A DNA stretch of 64,000 nucleotides from Candidatus Pacearchaeota archaeon (GTDB taxonomy: Archaea; Nanobdellota; Nanobdellia; Pacearchaeales; GW2011-AR1). Both the position numbers and the translations under genes were made by a program. Below, one piece after another: positions 3,253 through 27,418 of this stretch. Below the pieces are notes generated by a model. That model had not been told where the DNA came from. It saw only the letters and a list, made by a program, of their open reading frames with translations, and did no database searches. Numbering within the stretch: the stretch's first letter is position 1; every line of letters starts with the position of its first letter. The stretch is taken from NCBI GenBank assembly GCA_017609405.1, contig JAFCDZ010000001.1, positions 24,880-88,879 of the forward strand, written 5' to 3'.

Positions 3253-4443
3253 ATGGAAAAACCAATAGACATTATTTATGTTGTCGCATCTAAATTAGGA
3301 AGCATCGGAATGGGAACAACAGCGCTTAACGCTATTAAATCGCTTAATAATTCTAAAGAAATATCATATAGAATCTTTTGTAGAGGATATGATAAAAGTA
3401 TAAAGATTGATAAAAAAAATATATACTCTTATGGTTTTCTTGAAATTTTATCGCTTCCGCTAAGATTCCTCGAAAAAAAAATAGGTATTAACATTAAACC
3501 ATTTAAATATATAAATTGGATATATGGAAAATTAGTAGAAAAGGAACTTCCAAAATGTAAAATATATCACACTTGGATGAATGTTTCAAAAAACGCTGTA
3601 ATCAAAGCAAAAAAACAAGGAGCAACACTGATATTAGAAGGGGCAAATAGTCATCCAAAAAATTTCTTAAAGATTATGGAAGAAGAATATAATTTACTTG
3701 GAAAAAAGAGGTTTATTCCCAAAAAAAAAGAGATACTAAAAGAATCGAGGATAATCGAGCTTTTTGATTATGTAATGTGCCCATCAAAATTTGTTTATAA
3801 TTCTTTTTTAAAATATGGAAAGAAATCAAAGAAACAATTAATACTAATACCTTATGGAGTAGATTACAAAAAATTTTCAGGGCAAAGAAAAAAGAAGGGT
3901 AAAAAATTTAGAGTAATCTTCATTGGAAGCCTTCAAGTAAGGAAAGGTGTTCATTATTTATTAAAAGCATGGAAAGAATTAAATCTTATGAATTCTGAAC
4001 TAATCTTAGTAGGACGTATTTGGCCAGATATAGAAGATATAATTAAAAAATACAAAAAAGATAAAACAATTAGATTCGTTGGCTTTAATCCTAATCCATC
4101 AAAATACCTAAAAAATGCTAACGTCTTTGTTTCACCATCACTCGAGGAGGGTTCGGCACTAACATGTTATGAAGCGATGGCGGCGGGTTTGCCGGTTATT
4201 GCAACGGTCAATAGCGGATCAATTATACGTAATAAAAAGGAGGGGTTTATAATACCCATAAGAGATGTAGAAGCAATAAAAGAAAAAATAAAGTATTTTC
4301 ATGATAATCCAAAAATTTGTGAAAAAATGGGAAGAGCTGCAAGGAAAAGGGTAAAAAAGTTTAGTTGGGAAAATTATTCAAAAAGGTTATTAAAAGTATA
4401 TAAAAAAATTTTAAGAGAAAAAAATGAAAAAAACAAAAGATAA
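3253..4443 (+). CDS. Glycosyltransferase family 4
   Basis: LEEGSALTCYEAMAAGLPVIATVNSGS...KEGFII, a GT4 C-terminal signature. 396 aa. Confidence 0.75.
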   Translation: MEKPIDIIYVVASKLGSIGMGTTALNAIKSLNNSKEISYRIFCRGYDKSIKIDKKNIYSYGFLEILSLPLRFLEKKIGINIKPFKYINWIYGKLVEKELPKCKIYHTWMNVSKNAVIKAKKQGATLILEGANSHPKNFLKIMEEEYNLLGKKRFIPKKKEILKESRIIELFDYVMCPSKFVYNSFLKYGKKSKKQLILIPYGVDYKKFSGQRKKKGKKFRVIFIGSLQVRKGVHYLLKAWKELNLMNSELILVGRIWPDIEDIIKKYKKDKTIRFVGFNPNPSKYLKNANVFVSPSLEEGSALTCYEAMAAGLPVIATVNSGSIIRNKKEGFIIPIRDVEAIKEKIKYFHDNPKICEKMGRAARKRVKKFSWENYSKRLLKVYKKILREKNEKNKR

Positions 4444-5449
4444 AGAAAAAGAGATACAAAAGAATAAGAGGGTAGTAGTTAAATTTCCTAAGAATTTTCT
4501 TAAAAAGATAAAAAACAAACAAAAAAGTATTATTTATGACTGCTTCACTTTCTTCAATGAGCTTGATTTATTAGAAATAAGATTTGGTGAATTAGATAAA
4601 GTTGTAGATTACTTTGTTTTAGCAGAAGCAAATAGTACCTTTAGCGGAAAACCAAAAGAATTCCTTTTTGAAAAAAACAAAGAACGATACAAGAAATACT
4701 TTGATAAAATTATTTATGTAAAAATTATCAAAATGCCAAGAATAAATATAATTGATAAGTTTTTTATAGAATTAGAAAAAAAACTTCCAAGAAGATTCCA
4801 ATTAATCTTGAGGAGAGTTCTTGCAAGAATAATTGGGGGGGTAGCAAGATATAAGATGATAGAGTATCAAAGAAGGATGCTTATAGAAGGGTTAGCCTAC
4901 GCTTCAGATGAAGACATTATAATGGGTACAGATGTTGATGAGATACCTAAAAGTGAAAAAATAGAAGAAATGAAAAAAATGCTTGAAAAATACCGTTATG
5001 TTGAATTTGAATTAGCAAATTTCAGATATTATCTTAATGGAAAAGTTTATGGAAAAGGAGAAAACTCTCCTGGAACACGAGCATGCAAAATAAAAACACT
5101 TAGAAAAGAATTAAAAAACAAAATAGATTTTCTAAGAACAACACCCTATCTATGGAGAAAGATAAATCCAAGAGTTTATGGAAAGAAAAATTACTATACT
5201 ATAAAAAAAGGGGGTTGGCACTTTAGTTACTTAGGAGGTGTAAAAAAAGTTATAGAAAAATACAAAAATGTTTCACACCCAGAATTTGATCGTCCTGAAT
5301 TAAAGAATGAAAAATTCGTAAAAGAGATTATTGAAAAAGGGATTATTCCATTAGAAAATTCAAAAATAAGATATATAAAAATAGATGAAACATTTCCAAA
5401 AATAATAAAAAAAAATCTTAAAAAGTATAGTAAATATATAAAAAGATGA
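4424..5449 (+). CDS. Glycosyltransferase family 17-like (GnT-III-type fold)
   Basis: N-terminal YDCFTFFNELDLLEIRFGELDKVVDYFVLAEANSTFSGKPKEF and a later GGWHFSY motif, as I recall for the Glyco_transf_17 family. Start overlaps the previous gene. Confidence 0.55.
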   Translation: MKKTKDKEKEIQKNKRVVVKFPKNFLKKIKNKQKSIIYDCFTFFNELDLLEIRFGELDKVVDYFVLAEANSTFSGKPKEFLFEKNKERYKKYFDKIIYVKIIKMPRINIIDKFFIELEKKLPRRFQLILRRVLARIIGGVARYKMIEYQRRMLIEGLAYASDEDIIMGTDVDEIPKSEKIEEMKKMLEKYRYVEFELANFRYYLNGKVYGKGENSPGTRACKIKTLRKELKNKIDFLRTTPYLWRKINPRVYGKKNYYTIKKGGWHFSYLGGVKKVIEKYKNVSHPEFDRPELKNEKFVKEIIEKGIIPLENSKIRYIKIDETFPKIIKKNLKKYSKYIKR

Positions 5450-21331: not shown

Positions 21332-21349
21332 CATACAAAATATTGTATG
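21332..21349 (+). promoter_or_regulatory. Putative NrdR box (7-4-7 inverted repeat) just upstream of nrdR
   Basis: catacaaaatattgtatg. The core CAAAATATTG matches the NrdR-box core CwAtATaTwG at 9 of 10 positions. It lies 12 nt upstream of the MKCPYC start codon. Confidence 0.4.
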
Positions 21350-21360
21350 TAAAAAAAGAA

Positions 21361-21798
21361 ATGAAATGCCCATATTGTTTAAATCCAACAACAAAAGTTA
21401 CAGATAAAAGAGATACTCTTGAAGGAATAAGGAGAAGGAGAGAGTGTCTAAAATGCGGAAAAAGATTCACAACTTACGAAAGAATAGAAAAAACAAAAAT
21501 ATATGTCATAAAAAAAGATGGTAGGAGAGAAGAATTTGATATTAATAAAATCAGAACAGGAATTGAAAAAGCATTTGAAAAAAGACCTATATCAACAGAG
21601 GAAATTGATAAAATGATAAGAACAATTGAAGAAACAATAAGAAAAAAAGGAAAAAAAGAGATTCCAACCTCTTTTATTGGAAAATTAATATTAAATAAAA
21701 TAAAGAATTTAGACCCTGTTGCATATATAAGATTTGCATCAGTCTACATGGACTTTAAAGATATTAAAGATTTCAAAATAGCATTAAGGAGTATTTAA
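21361..21798 (+). CDS. nrdR: Transcriptional repressor NrdR (zinc ribbon + ATP-cone)
   Basis: MKCPYC...TKVTDKR...RRRECLKCGKRFTTYE zinc ribbon followed by an ATP-cone. The ORF track starts earlier, at a TTG (21343). Confidence 0.85.
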   Translation: MKCPYCLNPTTKVTDKRDTLEGIRRRRECLKCGKRFTTYERIEKTKIYVIKKDGRREEFDINKIRTGIEKAFEKRPISTEEIDKMIRTIEETIRKKGKKEIPTSFIGKLILNKIKNLDPVAYIRFASVYMDFKDIKDFKIALRSI

Positions 21799-21799
21799 A

Positions 21800-24781
21800 A
21801 TGATAGAAAAAATAAGAAAAAGAGATGGAAGAATTGTAGCCTTTAATAAGGAGAAAATATTCAACGCAATATGGAAAGCAGTAAAAGCTGTTGGTGGAAG
21901 TGATGAAAAAAAAGCAAGAGAGATAACTGATAAAATCTGCGAGATAATAAACAGCAGATACAAAGATTCTGTTCCAGGAGTAGAAGATATTCAAGACATT
22001 GTTGAAAAAACTCTTATTGAAGAGGGTCATGCAAAAGTCGCGAAAGCATATATTTTATACAGAAAGAAAAGAGAAGAAATGCGCAAATTAGAAGGATTAT
22101 TCAATTCAATTGAAGTTGTGGATAAATATCTTAATACTGAAGATTGGATGGTTAAAGAAAATTCAAATATGGGTTTTTCACTACAAGGATTAAACAATTA
22201 TATCTCAACAAAGATAATCACAAAATACTGGCTTCTAAAAATTTATCCAGAAGAAATACAAAAAGCACATGAAAACTGTGACATCCATATTCATGATTTA
22301 GGAACTCTTGGAGCATATTGTGTTGGCTGGGACTTAAAAGACCTCCTATTAAAAGGTTTTAGAGGCGTTCCTGGAAAAGTTGCATCAAAACCTGCAAAAC
22401 ATTTTAGAACAGCCCTTGGACAAATAGTAAATTTCTTTTACACTCTACAAGGAGAAACAGCAGGAGCCCAGGCATTTTCAAATTTTGATACTTTGCTCGC
22501 CCCTTTTATAAGATATGATAACTTAAGTTATAAAGAAGTAAAACAAGCAATGCAAGAATTCTTATTCAACCTTGCTGTTCCTACAAGAGTAGGGTTTCAA
22601 TGTATGTCAGAAGATACAGAAATATTAACTCCAAAAGGATGGGCAAAGTATAATGAACTTAAAAAAGGAGACATAATAAAAACATTTAACATTAAAAAAG
22701 GAATAATTGAAGATAAACCAATAAGAAGATTATTCAAAAGATATTATGAAGGAACTATGTATAATTTAAAAAATAGGATTCAAGACCAATTAATTTCGCC
22801 AAAACATAGGGTGGTTAGAAAAAAATTCAATTCAGAAGATTATGTTTTAGAGGAAATAGAAGAAGTTGAAAAGCTAAAATCACCAGTAATAGTCCCTATT
22901 GCAGGAAAGAACATCTCAAAAGATGCGAATATAAGTGATGAGCAAATAAAATTAATGGCTTGGATTATAGGTGAAGGGAGTATTGAACGAAGCAAAAAAG
23001 GAACCCAAAGAATAAGCATCTATCAATCAAAAATTAAAAATAAAAATAATTATTTGGAAATAAAAAAACTCCTAAAACATTTTAAATTAGAATTTGAAGA
23101 ATATACTCAAAAAGGATTAGGAAAACCAGTTCAAAGAATAAGATTAAATTCAAATTCTTCAAAAAGAATCCATAAATGGTTTTCAGATGAGAATATCCAT
23201 TTTATTCCTGACATCCTTCTAAATTTAAGCAAAAGGCAATCGAGATTATTCTTAGAGACATATATTAAAGCAGAAGGATTTGAAAAAAGCAAAATAGCAA
23301 CAACAAATAAAAGAATACTTGAAGGGCTTCAACAAATTGTAGTTAATGCTGAATATGGATTTACTGTTCTAAAAAGAAAACCAACAATCGGAACAAAAGA
23401 AATTTATGTTTTAAGAATAATTAGACACAGAGACACATATATTCAAAAAATCAAAAAAGTAAAGTATAAAGGAATTATCTGGTGTCCGAATACAGATAAC
23501 GAAACAGTAATTGCAAAAAGAAATGGAAAAGTTTTCATAACAGGGAATACACCTTTTACAAACCTCACAATGGATCTAAAGGTTCCTGAGTATATGAAAG
23601 AAGAATATGTAATAATTGGAGGAGAACCAAAACAAGAAAAATACAAAGAGTTCCAAAAAGAGATGAACATGATAAATAAAGCTTTTGCAGAATGCATGAT
23701 TGAAGGAGATGGTGAAGGAAGGGTATTCACTTTCCCAATTCCCACATATAATATAACAAAAGACTTTGATTGGGACAATCCAGAGTATGAACCTATATGG
23801 GAAATGACTGCAAAATATGGAATTCCTTATTTTTCAAATTTTATAAATTCAGATATGAAACCTGAAGATGCAAGAAGTATGTGTTGTAGACTTCGTCTTG
23901 ACCAAGCAGAACTAAGAAAAAGGGGTGGAGGATTATTTGGAGCAAATCCTCAAACAGGCTCAATAGGAGTGGTAACGATAAATCTTCCAAGATTAGGTTA
24001 TACATCCAATGAAGAAGGGGAATTTTTCAAGAAATTAGAAAGACTTATGGAAATAGCAAAAGAAAGTTTAGAAATAAAAAGAAAAGTGATTGAAAGATTC
24101 ACAAAAATAGGGCTATATCCTTATTCAAGATATTATTTATCAAATATTTATCAAAGATTCGGAGAATATTGGAAAAATCATTTCTCAACAATAGGGCTTC
24201 TCGGGATGAACGAAGCAATAATGAACTTTTTGCCAGGAGAGGACATAACAACTGAAAAAGGAAGGGCTTTTGCATTAAAAGTTTTAAAATTCATGAGAGA
24301 AAAATTAGAAAAATTCCAAAAAGAAACTGGAAATATATATAATTTAGAAGCAACCCCTGCTGAAGGAACAACATATAGATTTGCGAAAGCAGACAAAGAA
24401 AAATTCCCAAATATAATCGTGGCTAATGAAAAAGCTGTTAGAGAACAAGGAGCAGCACCATATTACACTAACTCAACACAACTTCCAGTAAATTATACTA
24501 ATGACATCTTCGAAGCATTAGATTTGCAAGATGAACTCCAAATACAATATACTGGAGGAACTGTTTTTCATGGATTTATCGGAGAGAAGATACCTCCAGA
24601 ATCAGTAAAGTTAATTGTTAAGAAAATAGCTGAAAATTACAGGCTCCCATATTTTACAATAACCCCAACATTTTCAATATGCCCAATTCACGGATATATT
24701 CCTGGTGAACATGAATACTGCCCAATTTGTGACGAAGAAAATGGAATATTCGAAGAAAAGATAATCCAAAAGGAGGTGTGA
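21800..24781 (+). CDS. nrdD: Anaerobic ribonucleoside-triphosphate reductase (class III, NrdD) catalytic chain, containing an intein; lacks the glycyl-radical segment
   Basis: N-terminal ATP-cone. C-terminal zinc site ICPIHG...CPIC. Context nrdR-nrdD-nrdG. 993 aa, including a ~316-aa intein. Confidence 0.85.
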   Translation: MIEKIRKRDGRIVAFNKEKIFNAIWKAVKAVGGSDEKKAREITDKICEIINSRYKDSVPGVEDIQDIVEKTLIEEGHAKVAKAYILYRKKREEMRKLEGLFNSIEVVDKYLNTEDWMVKENSNMGFSLQGLNNYISTKIITKYWLLKIYPEEIQKAHENCDIHIHDLGTLGAYCVGWDLKDLLLKGFRGVPGKVASKPAKHFRTALGQIVNFFYTLQGETAGAQAFSNFDTLLAPFIRYDNLSYKEVKQAMQEFLFNLAVPTRVGFQCMSEDTEILTPKGWAKYNELKKGDIIKTFNIKKGIIEDKPIRRLFKRYYEGTMYNLKNRIQDQLISPKHRVVRKKFNSEDYVLEEIEEVEKLKSPVIVPIAGKNISKDANISDEQIKLMAWIIGEGSIERSKKGTQRISIYQSKIKNKNNYLEIKKLLKHFKLEFEEYTQKGLGKPVQRIRLNSNSSKRIHKWFSDENIHFIPDILLNLSKRQSRLFLETYIKAEGFEKSKIATTNKRILEGLQQIVVNAEYGFTVLKRKPTIGTKEIYVLRIIRHRDTYIQKIKKVKYKGIIWCPNTDNETVIAKRNGKVFITGNTPFTNLTMDLKVPEYMKEEYVIIGGEPKQEKYKEFQKEMNMINKAFAECMIEGDGEGRVFTFPIPTYNITKDFDWDNPEYEPIWEMTAKYGIPYFSNFINSDMKPEDARSMCCRLRLDQAELRKRGGGLFGANPQTGSIGVVTINLPRLGYTSNEEGEFFKKLERLMEIAKESLEIKRKVIERFTKIGLYPYSRYYLSNIYQRFGEYWKNHFSTIGLLGMNEAIMNFLPGEDITTEKGRAFALKVLKFMREKLEKFQKETGNIYNLEATPAEGTTYRFAKADKEKFPNIIVANEKAVREQGAAPYYTNSTQLPVNYTNDIFEALDLQDELQIQYTGGTVFHGFIGEKIPPESVKLIVKKIAENYRLPYFTITPTFSICPIHGYIPGEHEYCPICDEENGIFEEKIIQKEV
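22601..23548 (+). mobile_element. Intein with a LAGLIDADG homing-endonuclease domain, inserted in NrdD
   Basis: Begins with Cys (CMSEDTEILTPKGW, intein block A). Two LAGLIDADG-like motifs (LMAWIIGEGS; LFLETYIKAEGF). Ends ...VFITGN followed by Thr (+1 nucleophile). Flanked by conserved NrdD extein sequence. Confidence 0.8.
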
Positions 24782-24782
24782 A

Positions 24783-24950
24783 ATGGAAAAAAAGAGAACA
24801 AAGTGTGAGGTTTATTCAAGAGTTGTAGGATATCTACGACCTATTGAACAATGGAATGATGGAAAAAGGGCAGAATTCGAAGACAGGGTAACTTTTAAGG
24901 TTATAAAAAATGAACAAGCAATTGAAGCAGCTGAAATAGAATGCAAATAA
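24783..24950 (+). CDS. Separately encoded glycyl-radical domain (55 aa) of NrdD
   Basis: MEKKRTKCEVYSRVVGYLRPIEQWNDGKRAEFEDRVTF carries the NrdD/PFL-type glycyl-radical loop (RVVGY). Strong SD AAGGAGGTG 5 nt upstream. Frame +1 relative to nrdD, 1 nt after its stop. Last 10 nt overlap nrdG. Confidence 0.6.
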   Translation: MEKKRTKCEVYSRVVGYLRPIEQWNDGKRAEFEDRVTFKVIKNEQAIEAAEIECK

Positions 24951-25645
24951 AAGGATTTCAGAAATTTACATTAATAGATTACCCTGGAAAAATAGCTTGC
25001 ACTATTTTTTTATATGGTTGCAATTTCAGATGCGGATTCTGTCATAATCCTGAATTAGTGATAGAAAATGACAAAACAGGAAGCTTTGATAAAGAAGAAA
25101 TATTAAACTTTTTAAAAAGAAGAAAGGCTCAATTAGAAGGGGTGTGTTTTACTGGCGGGGAGCCCTTAATGACTCTTGAAAAAAATTTTCTAAAAAAGAT
25201 AAAAGAACTTGGCTACAAGATAAAAATAGATACAAACGGAAGTTTTCCTGAAAAACTTGAAGAATTTATAAACGAAAAGTTAATTGATTTTGTTTCAATG
25301 GATATAAAAACTAAAAGAGAAAAATATCCAGAGATAGTAAGAGCGAATATTGAAATTGAAAAAATAGAAAAAAGCATAAAATTAATCCCCTCCTTACAAG
25401 ATTATGAATTCAGAACAACTATAGTAACCCCTTTACATCCTATTGAAGATATAATAGAGCTTGCTAAGTGGTTAAATAACTTGGTTGGAAAAAAACCAAA
25501 AAAATATGTTTTGCAAGGTTTTAAAAGAGCAGAAAAATTAATTGATCCAGAATTCAGAAAAATAAAAAGCACAAAAGAAGAATATTTAAAAGAGATAAGA
25601 GAAAAAATAAAAGATTATTTTGAAAAAACAGAGATAAGGGTGTAA
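24941..25645 (+). CDS. nrdG: Anaerobic ribonucleotide reductase activating protein (radical SAM)
   Basis: CNFRCGFCHNPE (CxxxCxxC) near the N-terminus. 234 aa. Immediately downstream of nrdD. Confidence 0.85.
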   Translation: MQIKGFQKFTLIDYPGKIACTIFLYGCNFRCGFCHNPELVIENDKTGSFDKEEILNFLKRRKAQLEGVCFTGGEPLMTLEKNFLKKIKELGYKIKIDTNGSFPEKLEEFINEKLIDFVSMDIKTKREKYPEIVRANIEIEKIEKSIKLIPSLQDYEFRTTIVTPLHPIEDIIELAKWLNNLVGKKPKKYVLQGFKRAEKLIDPEFRKIKSTKEEYLKEIREKIKDYFEKTEIRV

Positions 25646-25646
25646 A

Positions 25647-26072
25647 ATGATATTGAAATTCAAAAAACTTGATAAAGAAGCAAAAATAGGAAGTTATGCA
25701 TATAAAGGAGATGCAGGACTTGACTTGTTTTCAAACCAAGAAGTAATATTAAAACCCTTTGAAAGAAAAACAATTTCAACAGGAATTGCACTTGAAATAC
25801 CTAAAGGATATGTTGGATTAATTTGGGACAAATCAGGAATTGCATCAAAAATTGGATTAAAAACAATGGGTGGTGTGATTGATTCAAATTATCGAGGAGA
25901 AATAAAAATTGTAGTATTCAACACATCAAAAGAAGAAGTAAAAATTGAAAAAGGCCAAAAAATAGCTCAAATGCTGATACAAAAAGTGGAACAGGCTAAA
26001 ATACTTGAAGTAGAAGAATTGAGTGAAACTGAGAGGAATGAAAAAGGGTTTGGAAGTTCTGGAATAAAATAA
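25647..26072 (+). CDS. dut: dUTP diphosphatase (homotrimeric dUTPase)
   Basis: All five dUTPase motifs: DAGLDL, DKSGIASKIGL, GVIDSNYRGEI, KIAQML, RNEKGFGSSG. 141 aa. Confidence 0.85.
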   Translation: MILKFKKLDKEAKIGSYAYKGDAGLDLFSNQEVILKPFERKTISTGIALEIPKGYVGLIWDKSGIASKIGLKTMGGVIDSNYRGEIKIVVFNTSKEEVKIEKGQKIAQMLIQKVEQAKILEVEELSETERNEKGFGSSGIK

Positions 26073-26095: not shown

Positions 26096-27418
26096 TTGAA
26101 GGTAAATATAAACATGCCTTATGACATTATTATTGGAAGAAATGAGGATGATAAAAAGAGGTTTGGAAAAAAGGGCTTAATCTATATTGGAAAAAGTTAT
26201 GTAAAAATGGGCAGATATACCTCTTTATCAAATAATGTATTCATGGATGTAGCAAGAAGTCATGTTGTATTAATTGCTGGAAAAAGAGGAAGTGGAAAAT
26301 CATACAGTTTAGGGGTAATTGCAGAAGAGCTAAGCACACTTTCAGGAGAAGAAAAACAAAATATAAGTGCAGTTATATTTGACACAATGGGAATTTATTG
26401 GACAATGAAATTTCAGAATGAAAAAGATAAAGAATTATTAAGCAAATGGGAATTAGAACCCCAAAACATCCCAATAAGAATTTTTGTCCCTTTTGGGCAT
26501 TTTGATAAATATCTTGAAAAAGGAATCCCTATTGATGAAAAATTTGCAATAGATGTTTCAGAGATAAAAGCTGAGGACTGGATAAATTTATTTGAACTAG
26601 AACTAATTGACCCTGTTTCTATTTTAATACAAAAAACACTCTCAAAGTTAGGAAAAAAATTTTTTATCCGAGACATAATTGAAGAAATAGAAAAAGATAA
26701 AGAATCAGATAAGAATACAAAAAACGCTGCAAAAAGCCTTTTCTTAGCAGCAGAAACTTGGGGGATTTTTGCAACACCTGAACAAAAACCAATAAGCATT
26801 GATGAAATAAGTTCTGGAGGAAAAACAAATGTAATTGATTTAAGTGTGTATAATTCAATTGGAAGTTTCAACATAAGGGCATTAGTAATTAGTCTGGTTT
26901 CAAGAAAACTCTTCAATGAAAGGATGGAATACAGAAAAAAAGAGGAAATTGAAGCAGTATCAAAAGGATTAGACTATTTTAATAATGAAATAACAAGAGA
27001 AAAACCTCTTGTTTGGATTTTTATAGATGAAGCTCATGAGTTCTTGCCAAACGACGGCAAAACAATTGCAACAGATGCTTTAATTCAATTACTAAGAGAA
27101 GGCAGACAACCAGGAGTTTCTGTTGTTCTTGCGACTCAACAACCTGGAAAAATCCATACCGATGTAATGACTCAATCAGATATTGTTATCTCCCACAGAG
27201 TAACTTCTGCTCAAGACCTAAAAGCACTGAATAACATAATGCAATCATATATCTTAGAAGACATACAAACCCAGATGAATAATCTTCCAACACTAAAAGG
27301 TTCTGCAATAATCTTAGATGATAATTCAGAAAGAATTTATTCAATGAGAATCAGGCCAAGATTTACATGGCATGGAGGAGAAGCTCCAACTGCAGTTAAA
27401 GAAGAAAAGGAGTTTTAA
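26096..27418 (+). CDS. HerA/FtsK-like P-loop ATPase (DUF87-type)
   Basis: Walker A GKRGSGKS, Walker B-like IFIDEAHEF, C-terminal ATQQPGKIHTDVMTQSDIVISHRVTSAQD, typical of HerA/VirB4-like ATPases. 440 aa. Confidence 0.6.
   Translation: MKVNINMPYDIIIGRNEDDKKRFGKKGLIYIGKSYVKMGRYTSLSNNVFMDVARSHVVLIAGKRGSGKSYSLGVIAEELSTLSGEEKQNISAVIFDTMGIYWTMKFQNEKDKELLSKWELEPQNIPIRIFVPFGHFDKYLEKGIPIDEKFAIDVSEIKAEDWINLFELELIDPVSILIQKTLSKLGKKFFIRDIIEEIEKDKESDKNTKNAAKSLFLAAETWGIFATPEQKPISIDEISSGGKTNVIDLSVYNSIGSFNIRALVISLVSRKLFNERMEYRKKEEIEAVSKGLDYFNNEITREKPLVWIFIDEAHEFLPNDGKTIATDALIQLLREGRQPGVSVVLATQQPGKIHTDVMTQSDIVISHRVTSAQDLKALNNIMQSYILEDIQTQMNNLPTLKGSAIILDDNSERIYSMRIRPRFTWHGGEAPTAVKEEKEF

Follow-up and report, generated by a model that had tools for sequence, protein, structure and literature searches.

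Where does the class III ribonucleotide reductase (RNR) of a Pacearchaeota archaeon carry its radical glycine, if the gene for its catalytic chain stops before reaching it? The question is raised by a 64,000-nucleotide (nt) stretch of contig JAFCDZ010000001.1 (hereafter the window), in which the nrdD open reading frame (ORF) ends shortly past its zinc site and a second, 55-residue ORF (the mini-gene) encodes the glycyl-radical loop that the large ORF lacks. An earlier note on this DNA had described the split and offered a two-chain enzyme, a programmed frameshift or a sequencing error as its cause. Our analysis indicates that the locus probably encodes a genuine two-gene, two-chain class III RNR. 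Judged by sequence comparison, the split is real and widespread, recurring in hundreds of uncultured archaea, bacteria and phages, and this recurrence argues for a real architecture rather than a sequencing error.

The divided nrdD locus

The elements that bear on the question are the following.

21800 to 24781, + strand: nrdD large chain, 993 amino acids (aa) unspliced and ~677 aa spliced, with its stop TGA at 24779-24781
23882 to 23887, + strand: finger-loop cysteine pair C695, C696 in SMCCRL, located from the translation
24680 to 24730, + strand: zinc-ribbon motif CPIH-x9-CPIC (aa 961-977), CPIHGYIPGEHEYCPIC, which stays on the large chain
24731 to 24778, + strand: C-terminal tail of the large chain, 16 aa, DEENGIFEEKIIQKEV, between the last zinc cysteine and the TGA
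24770 to 24778, + strand: Shine-Dalgarno (SD) sequence AAGGAGGTG of the mini-gene, inside the 3' end of nrdD
24783 to 24950, + strand: mini-gene for the 55-aa glycyl-radical subunit MEKKRTKCEVYSRVVGYLRPIEQWNDGKRAEFEDRV..., matching PF13597 positions 530-562 (E 1.8e-10)
24828 to 24830, + strand: GGA codon for Gly16 of RVVGY, the predicted radical site, invariant in 38 mini-proteins

The large ORF scored 595 bits against PF13597 (NRDD; cut-off 26.2) over profile positions 156-531 of 562, 1041 bits against NF006126 (cut-off 548) and 518 bits against TIGR02487 (cut-off 326). It contains the ATP-cone (aa 4-93), the catalytic barrel and the zinc ribbon, with no glycyl-radical loop. The mini-gene product scored 40.6 bits against PF13597, above the same 26.2-bit cut-off, and the two products abut exactly in the profile, the first running to position 531 and the second from position 530. 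Scans of Pfam and NCBIfam with the peptide returned NrdD models only, with no match to PF01228 (Gly_radical) or GrcA at E<=0.01. Pfam, NCBIfam and PHROGs hold no dedicated family for it, only the last 30-50 positions of NrdD models being matched. The glycyl-radical motif of the mini-gene is the only one in the 64-kb window, and the radical glycine thus does not lie on the NrdD polypeptide itself: the two ORFs jointly make up a complete NrdD, and neither does so alone.

These results bear out the earlier note in most of its description, namely that the 993-aa ORF ends at TGA 24779-24781 just past the zinc site (16 residues after the motif), that the 55-aa ORF follows one nt on in the +1 frame behind AAGGAGGTG, that this small ORF is the missing radical loop, as its match to PF13597 positions 530-562 confirms, and that it overlaps nrdG (start 24941) by 10 nt. 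Its statement that the glycyl-radical domain is separate applies to the loop and the following helix, which are the piece detached from nrdD, but not to the zinc ribbon, which is usually counted in that domain and remains on the large chain.

At the junction a single base (A, 24782) separates the nrdD TGA from the ATG of the mini-gene at 24783. The mini-gene frame, which ends at TAA 24948-24950, is open from 24765 only and offers a single possible start codon. The sequence AGGAGGTG occurs three times in the window against 0.6 expected, and similar SD sequences precede the mini-gene in the relatives' loci L002, L005, L023, L031, L035, L052 and L161.

Relatives of the peptide are themselves short. 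A word-indexed search gave 633 matches, and the best 120, which we inspected, were all 40-93 aa long. A profile of 38 mini-proteins, run exhaustively with HMMER against 1.84 billion cluster representatives, matched 4949 of them at E<=1e-3, a number that fell to 2460 at E<=1e-10; among the best 150 matches, 149 were 45-149 aa long and a single one was a full-length NrdD. The mini-proteins begin a few residues ahead of KRTKCEVYSRVVGY, and the 38 aligned members share the invariant core KRTK-C-E-V-Y-S-R-V-V-G-Y-x-R-P-x-x-Q-W-x-x-x-K-x-x-E. Many of them, the window's (...EIECK) included, terminate with one or two cysteines. A subgroup has SRVVGFLTP in place of SRVVGYLRP (P0316, P0340, P0348, P0353, P0360, P0371 and P0372, with P0246 and P0269 listed alongside), and in two representatives the radical motif is duplicated in tandem, which may be an assembly artefact.

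The large chains tell the same story from the other side. Of the 120 relatives closest to the C-terminal 294 aa, 96 end past the zinc site without a glycine loop, in non-conserved, mostly acidic tails of 5-130 aa that take the place of the window's 16-residue tail (a few are possibly cut by contig ends), and 23 are fused to the loop via a very short linker, for example CPKCGAKCEVYSR. Recurrent types among the free tails (P0126-P0245, L006) are an (E/D)RNII(E/Q)AIA ending, a GGDTNGENEM ending and a CxxC-pair ending; the last (...EGCVEC, ...GENCQDC, ...EGCATC) recalls the redox-shuttle tails of class I and class II RNRs. The finger-loop motif M-C-C-x-L-R is invariant in 72 relatives, and its cysteine pair C695/C696 is what we take, from established NrdD structures, to be the catalytic thiyl radical site. 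In the alignment of these relatives (A2) the zinc ligands C378, C391 and C394 are invariant and H381 is nearly so. The window enzyme belongs to the PRK08270/NF006126 subfamily, which is only ~23% identical to Thermotoga maritima NrdD and has no close solved relative.

Recurrence of the split and its possible causes

Related genomes hold both forms of the gene. In a survey of 80 species-representative genome loci, ~25 had an nrdD stop followed by a mini-gene, ~47 were fused, three carried orphan mini-genes and two were broken elsewhere in nrdD. The split loci come from DPANN archaea, Patescibacteria, Bipolaricaulota, Thermotogae and others, and their junctions are diverse: the mini-gene lies in frame 0 (6 loci), +1 (11) or +2 (8) relative to nrdD, at distances from the nrdD stop that range from overlaps through a few to tens of nt up to ~125 nt, and some spacers hold further stops (L042, L014, L069). 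No ORF lies between nrdD and the mini-gene in any of these spacers. A strong SD sequence precedes the mini-gene ATG in nearly all split loci, the Thermotogae/Bipolaricaulota group using a TTG behind GGAGG, and an nrdG-type gene lies downstream in 23 of 26 (overlapping, or with its frame opening within ~480 nt). The mini-gene is under strong purifying selection; dN/dS of its core between split loci was 0.03-0.29 where computable, dS being saturated in over half of the pairs. In a neighbour-joining tree of large-chain C-termini, drawn without support values, split forms fall in several clades.

The closest comparison is a relative whose peptide is 88% identical and whose NrdD exteins are 68-81% identical to those of the window, within a like nrdR-nrdD-mini-gene-nrdG operon. 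It occurs on nine contigs, of which the four shown are from four separate JGI metagenomes. Its junction differs from the window's, consisting of a 57-aa tail, a TAA, the 16-nt spacer aaacaaggaggtgaaa and an ATG.

Could the break be an artefact, introduced into an ordinary single-chain nrdD by a sequencing or assembly indel in this metagenome-assembled genome (MAG)? The frames would be joined by a 1-nt change within 24765-24778, and only there, because the frame of the small ORF is open only from 24765; short A-runs are present; a locus of the same clade (L045) is fused; and frameshift-type breaks occur elsewhere in nrdD in other assemblies (L004, L037). The A-run in which the earlier note had placed a possible frameshift error, given as 24786-24793, spans 24787-24793, lies past the nrdD stop and cannot fuse the frames. 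The breakpoint, with its own start and its own SD sequence, recurs in dozens of independent assemblies whose junctions, frames and spacers differ, most of the nearest large chains (the 96 of 120 above) likewise end without the loop, and the identical 55-aa protein is on record from both NCBI and JGI. We therefore hold an indel to be very improbable as the cause, and an error private to this assembly appears very unlikely on these comparisons.

L045 (Nanoarchaeota, ~5013) is the only fused NrdD within the otherwise split Woese/Pacearchaeota clade, and its fusion could be the ancestral state, a re-fusion or an assembly error. In L004 (Syntrophomonas palmitatica JCM 14374) and L037 (Saccharicrinis) a fused-type nrdD has a frame change farther upstream. 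These two breaks are probably draft-assembly errors or pseudogenes, and give an example of an accidental break as opposed to the conserved split.

A second possibility is that the frames are joined during translation, by programmed +1 frameshifting at GUG-UGA-A in the manner of release factor 2 (RF2) or by stop recoding, to give a fused NrdD, the small ORF then not being translated independently. The strong SD-like sequence just before the TGA, as at the RF2 frameshift site, would suit this, as would the +1 frame that is open across the junction and the frame-0 position of the mini-gene, past a stop codon, in six relatives (the two parts being separated only by one TGA in L005 and L010). However, the junction has no slippery codon, since the tRNA-Val on GUG cannot re-pair on UGU, and no significant RNA structure relative to shuffled sequences (z = -0.69). 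Neither the frame relation nor the spacer length is conserved, and the spacers of L042, L014 and L069 contain the further stops already mentioned. The start is always at the equivalent place in the protein, whether ATG or the TTG of the Thermotogae/Bipolaricaulota group; TGA is an ordinary stop in this genome, ending 12 of 38 long ORFs; and orphan mini-genes must be translated alone. The programmed frameshift of the earlier note is thus disfavoured, and we consider recoding of either kind improbable, with only a slight chance of being correct.

Two further candidates were rejected. Use of TGA as a sense codon under an alternative code is at odds with the same count of TGA-terminated ORFs, and in-frame read-through gives no glycine motif. 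Trans-splicing by a split intein would call for intein motifs at the junction, where none were found, and the sole intein is internal and contiguous.

Finally, the locus could be in decay, a pseudogene of a DPANN archaeon that depends on a host and imports its deoxynucleotides. Metabolism is reduced in DPANN, and the large ORF is interrupted by an intein as well. Yet the two ORFs are conserved and intact, no variation is seen in the catalytic and zinc residues, the mini-gene is under strong purifying selection, nrdG, nrdR and dut are kept in a tight operon with them, and the architecture is conserved across phyla, all of which makes decay an extremely remote explanation.

Proposed assembly in trans and orphan copies

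The standalone peptide families, the truncated large chains, the recurrent split loci and the selection on the mini-gene all support the two-chain enzyme that the earlier note had listed among its options. An AlphaFold2 model of an artificial fusion, joining aa 584-993 of the large chain (the part after the intein) to the peptide and based on an alignment of 72 relatives, shows that the peptide can, as modelled, occupy the radical loop's normal place. The model had a mean pLDDT of 83 and a pTM of 0.86. Peptide residues 1-40 reached pLDDT 72-88 and the last 15 residues fell below 50, while the last ten residues of the large chain scored 55, consistent with a flexible linker. In it the peptide forms a beta-hairpin (strands 419-425 and 427-430) with Gly16 (model residue 426) at the tip, followed by a helix. 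Foldseek aligned 464 model columns with the single-chain T. maritima NrdD (4U3E_B; TM 0.69), the next matches being the Prevotella copri, Streptococcus thermophilus and T4 enzymes. The peptide alone gave a marginal match to 8P23 in the Protein Data Bank (PDB).

In such an enzyme the large chain would contribute the ATP-cone, the zinc ribbon and a ten-stranded barrel that holds the finger-loop cysteines, and the peptide would contribute the radical glycine, Gly16. The activase NrdG would abstract the C-alpha hydrogen of Gly16 on the free or loosely bound peptide, whose beta-hairpin would then insert in the barrel beside the finger-loop cysteine, like the covalent loop of single-chain NrdD, and the radical would shuttle from glycine to cysteine to substrate as usual. 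The tight packing of the genes and the mini-gene's own strong ribosome-binding site suggest that the two chains and the activase are co-transcribed, coupled in translation and made together.

The activase of pyruvate formate-lyase (PFL) accepts short peptides. The glycyl-radical domain of P. copri NrdD is highly mobile and can fully undock, as seen by cryo-electron microscopy and hydrogen-deuterium exchange (PMC11226230), and GrcA acts in trans on PFL (PMC13450708, PMC8683613). Taken together, these properties make docking in trans mechanistically reasonable. We infer that the arrangement could be advantageous in that the activase would reach its substrate easily, and in that oxygen cleavage at the radical glycine would cost a 6-kDa peptide rather than the ~78-kDa catalytic chain. 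A peptide sacrificed to oxygen in this way would amount to the spare-part principle built into the enzyme itself.

Several points weigh against a two-chain enzyme. The window is a single assembly, in which a 1-nt deletion in 24765-24778 would give a plausible fusion (...EEKIIQRRCEMEKKRTKCEVYSR), and L045 is fused through a linker about as long as that of such a fusion, 19 residues (CPTCDKENNYKEGDAESALKRTKCEVYSR). The AlphaFold2 model, being that of an artificial fusion without the N-terminal half of the barrel, was built on an alignment that includes fused homologues and so biases it to the family fold. To be activated efficiently, GrcA depends on a long disordered N-terminus (PMC13450708), whereas the window peptide has only ~7 residues ahead of the conserved core.

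The nearest known system is single-chain NrdD with NrdG (T4, 1H78; T. maritima, 4COI/4U3E; P. copri, 8P23; S. thermophilus, 9D3X), which has in common with the window the barrel, the finger-loop cysteines, the ATP-cone, the zinc ribbon, the RVxGY loop and an adjacent radical-SAM (S-adenosylmethionine) activase. In all solved and characterised NrdDs the radical glycine is on the barrel polypeptide, whereas in the window it is on a separate 55-aa product; no split NrdD is found among the solved structures, all NrdDs in the PDB being single chains.

Like the window peptide, GrcA/YfiD of E. coli and Y06I of phage T4 are small standalone glycyl-radical loop proteins, which serve as spare parts of PFL. 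GrcA and the peptide would both be charged by the parent enzyme's activase and dock in a barrel that lacks a functional loop, and both have phage versions. However, GrcA is derived from PFL (Pfam Gly_radical PF01228, IPR011140) and the window peptide from NrdD. GrcA, at 127 aa, coexists with full-length PFL and acts after oxygen cleavage, whereas the parent chain of the 55-aa window peptide never has the loop, so that the peptide is the only radical site of its enzyme and not a spare. The analogy drawn in the earlier note thus carries over for mechanism, but not for the spare role and not for family; membership in the GrcA family was rejected for want of a PF01228 or GrcA model match.

In other RNRs, too, the catalytic subunit is encoded by two consecutive ORFs, the products of which have to come together without a covalent link. 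These are the split class II NrdJa/NrdJb of Pseudomonas and Thermus phage phiYS40 and, in Aeromonas phage Aeh1, NrdA-a/NrdA-b. Those splits cut the barrel or the C-terminal redox/zinc-finger domains of class I and II enzymes, whereas that of the window detaches the radical-storing element. The Aeh1 split arose from a homing-endonuclease insertion, whereas the window ORFs have nothing between them and the intein lies elsewhere (22601-23548). With class I NrdA/NrdB the likeness is a functional analogy only, a stable radical kept on a chain separate from the barrel and passed to the finger-loop cysteine; NrdB is a ferritin-like metalloprotein that works through long-range proton-coupled electron transfer, and the window peptide is a fragment of the barrel protein, with no homology to NrdB, that would insert immediately beside the cysteine. 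The other interrupted RNR genes that are known, phage nrdD included, are interrupted by an intron or intein, and the RNR splits found in the literature searched comprise only genes split by introns, inteins or homing-endonuclease genes and the class II NrdJa/b.

The mini-gene also occurs alone. A search of IMG/VR gave 186 matching stretches, and in 74 of the best 80 loci (L081-L160), which were examined, the mini-gene has no nrdD or nrdG within 4 kb. In L112 (mini-gene 3941-4138) it stands in a lambdoid-type early region with genes for an O-like replication protein, NinG/Rap, an HNH protein and a peptidase. A further phage example is the mini-gene of L083 (~4001-4144), and one viral contig, IMGVR_UViG_3300025600_000014, has two copies ~10 kb apart (L112, L116). 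That the phage genes for the peptide mostly stand alone implies that the module may act in trans, and these phage orphans may serve the virus as spare parts or as a means of hijacking the host's anaerobic RNR. Orphans in general suggest action in trans, for which they are the best indirect evidence, and are candidate class III RNR spare parts.

Three types of peptide can be told apart. The first, as in the window, has a short KRTKCEVYSR start. The second has an N-terminal ELxNGDLxLDNGxxIP extension and is the adjacent small chain in Thermotogae/Bipolaricaulota and an orphan in Caldisericum. The third, of 110-120 aa (up to 160 aa), has its own zinc ribbon (CHDC...CxxC) before the loop and is not beside nrdD (L061, 4749-5111; L066, ~4750-5102; L145; L153). 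One Desulfobacterales MAG holds both L066 and the full-length fused NrdD of L013, and this coexistence is the situation expected of a true spare part.

The Caldisericum orphan (L054, 4935-5141) is a 68-aa mini-gene with the 'REDENRNLVLVDGTVIP' extension; it follows energy-coupling factor (ECF) transporter genes, and there is no nrdD in its vicinity. This extension is also characteristic of the small chains in the split NrdDs of L009, L017, L025, L053, L057 and L079 (Thermotogae/Bipolaricaulota), which overlap nrdD and seemingly start at TTG behind GGAGG. On a 3.2-kb contig (L165, 2877-3029), a mini-protein ~95% identical to the window's over the aligned core follows genes for helix-turn-helix, SEC-C, HU and peptidase M23 proteins, with no nrdD upstream.

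It is possible, though in our view somewhat doubtful, that the peptide is a diffusible, exchangeable radical cofactor, charged off the enzyme by NrdG, bound to it only for a short time and renewed once oxygen has damaged it: a spare part of the GrcA/YfiD kind made obligatory, with phage copies that boost or take over host deoxynucleoside triphosphate (dNTP) synthesis. This differs from the two-chain enzyme set out above in dynamics only, not in gene architecture. The viral mini-genes far from nrdD and nrdG, in genuine phage early regions, the orphan copies in cellular genomes (L054, L061, L066), the 95% identical orphan on an unrelated contig and the intrinsic mobility of the glycyl-radical domain would all fit such a cofactor. 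Against it, the SD sequence inside nrdD, the 1-nt gap and the 10-nt overlap with nrdG suggest roughly stoichiometric co-production. The broader proposal, that the class III RNRs of many DPANN, Patescibacteria and other anaerobes use a freely exchangeable 40-90-residue cofactor charged by NrdG, with cellular and phage orphans acting in trans as spare parts or dNTP boosters, we regard as a serious possibility that stops just short of probable. For the two-chain enzyme as well, that the chains assemble in trans, that NrdG activates the peptide and that there is any functional advantage is what we infer from the comparisons above.

A naturally split NrdD would be a new architectural variant of a well-known enzyme, widespread and apparently unrecognised. 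In the full-text literature searched, which omits most subscription-journal papers, we came upon no account of an NrdD radical loop with a gene of its own. Glycyl-radical enzymes are defined as single chains that bear their own radical glycine, GrcA/YfiD being the only known exception. Spare-part proteins are known for PFL only, and in a 2021 paper and a 2026 review their existence for other glycyl-radical enzymes is given as undetermined (PMC13450708; PMC8683613 is much alike). An exchangeable cofactor, if true, would be the first radical module outside PFL that is autonomous or a spare part, and would make class III RNR a two-subunit enzyme with its radical on a separate chain, as in class I. 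The split enzyme could serve as a test system for whether NrdG can activate a 6-kDa peptide and whether that peptide can pass on its radical in trans. It would allow the installation of the radical to be examined apart from catalysis and would show how organisms of oxic-anoxic interfaces limit the cost of oxygen damage. For annotation, thousands of ORFs of 40-90 aa are labelled hypothetical or as 'anaerobic RNR' fragments, and metabolic reconstructions of DPANN and the Candidate Phyla Radiation may count the truncated large chains among the pseudogenes. The orphan phage copies point to an unrecognised class of auxiliary genes that targets host deoxynucleotide synthesis.

Intein, operon and host

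The remaining features of the locus are as follows.

21333 to 21348, + strand: NrdR-box-like palindrome ATACAAAATATTGTAT, a possible operator, with 3 mismatches to the bacterial NrdR-box consensus
21361 to 21798, + strand: nrdR, ATP-cone transcriptional repressor and first gene of the operon (Zn_ribbon_NrdR E 3.8e-17, ATP-cone E 3e-23)
22601 to 23548, + strand: intein with LAGLIDADG homing-endonuclease domain (aa 268-583), between RVGFQ and TPFTN
24941 to 25645, + strand: nrdG, radical-SAM activase (TIGR02495 NrdG2, 200 bits, cut-off 131)
25647 to 26072, + strand: dut (dUTPase), last gene of the operon (PF00692, E 2.6e-36)

The large chain requires splicing of the intein for its maturation. 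The intein is 316 aa long, begins with a cysteine and ends in ...TGN before a threonine. It was recognised by a weak intein_Nterm match (aa 268-331) and by LAGLIDADG_3 (aa 387-453), and its boundaries were set by alignment to the relative L161, which is contiguous across that site. The window intein terminates in GN, not HN. L161 has a different intein of ~328 aa (L161 ~1978-2961) at the catalytic cysteine pair (SMC|...|CRL), and NrdD of that clade therefore has two intein insertion sites.

The gene order is nrdR, nrdD, mini-gene, nrdG, dut, with gaps of <=1 nt or overlaps throughout: the mini-gene overlaps nrdG by 10 nt, and dut starts 1 nt past the nrdG stop. The nrdR frame is open from TTG 21343, the probable start being ATG 21361 (MKCPYC...), and nrdR also precedes nrdD in the relatives L161-L163. 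An NrdR repressor thus heads the operon of an archaeon, though NrdR is typically bacterial. The 16-bp palindrome ATACAAAATATTGTAT lies 13 nt upstream of the nrdR ATG. The window has two NrdR-box-like matches against 0.95 expected, which is not significant in itself, and with only its position suggestive we regard the palindrome as a candidate operator on weak evidence.

The window has a G+C content of 29% and codes for a family-B DNA polymerase, GatD, an archaeal-type prolyl-tRNA synthetase and three tRNAs. The closest relatives of the large and small ORFs are in Woesearchaeota, Pacearchaeota and Nanoarchaeota MAGs. By this gene content and these nearest relatives, its source is assigned to a cellular DPANN archaeon. 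Directly downstream of the RNR-dut operon, at window positions 26096-27418, lies a gene for a HerA/DUF87-type ATPase.

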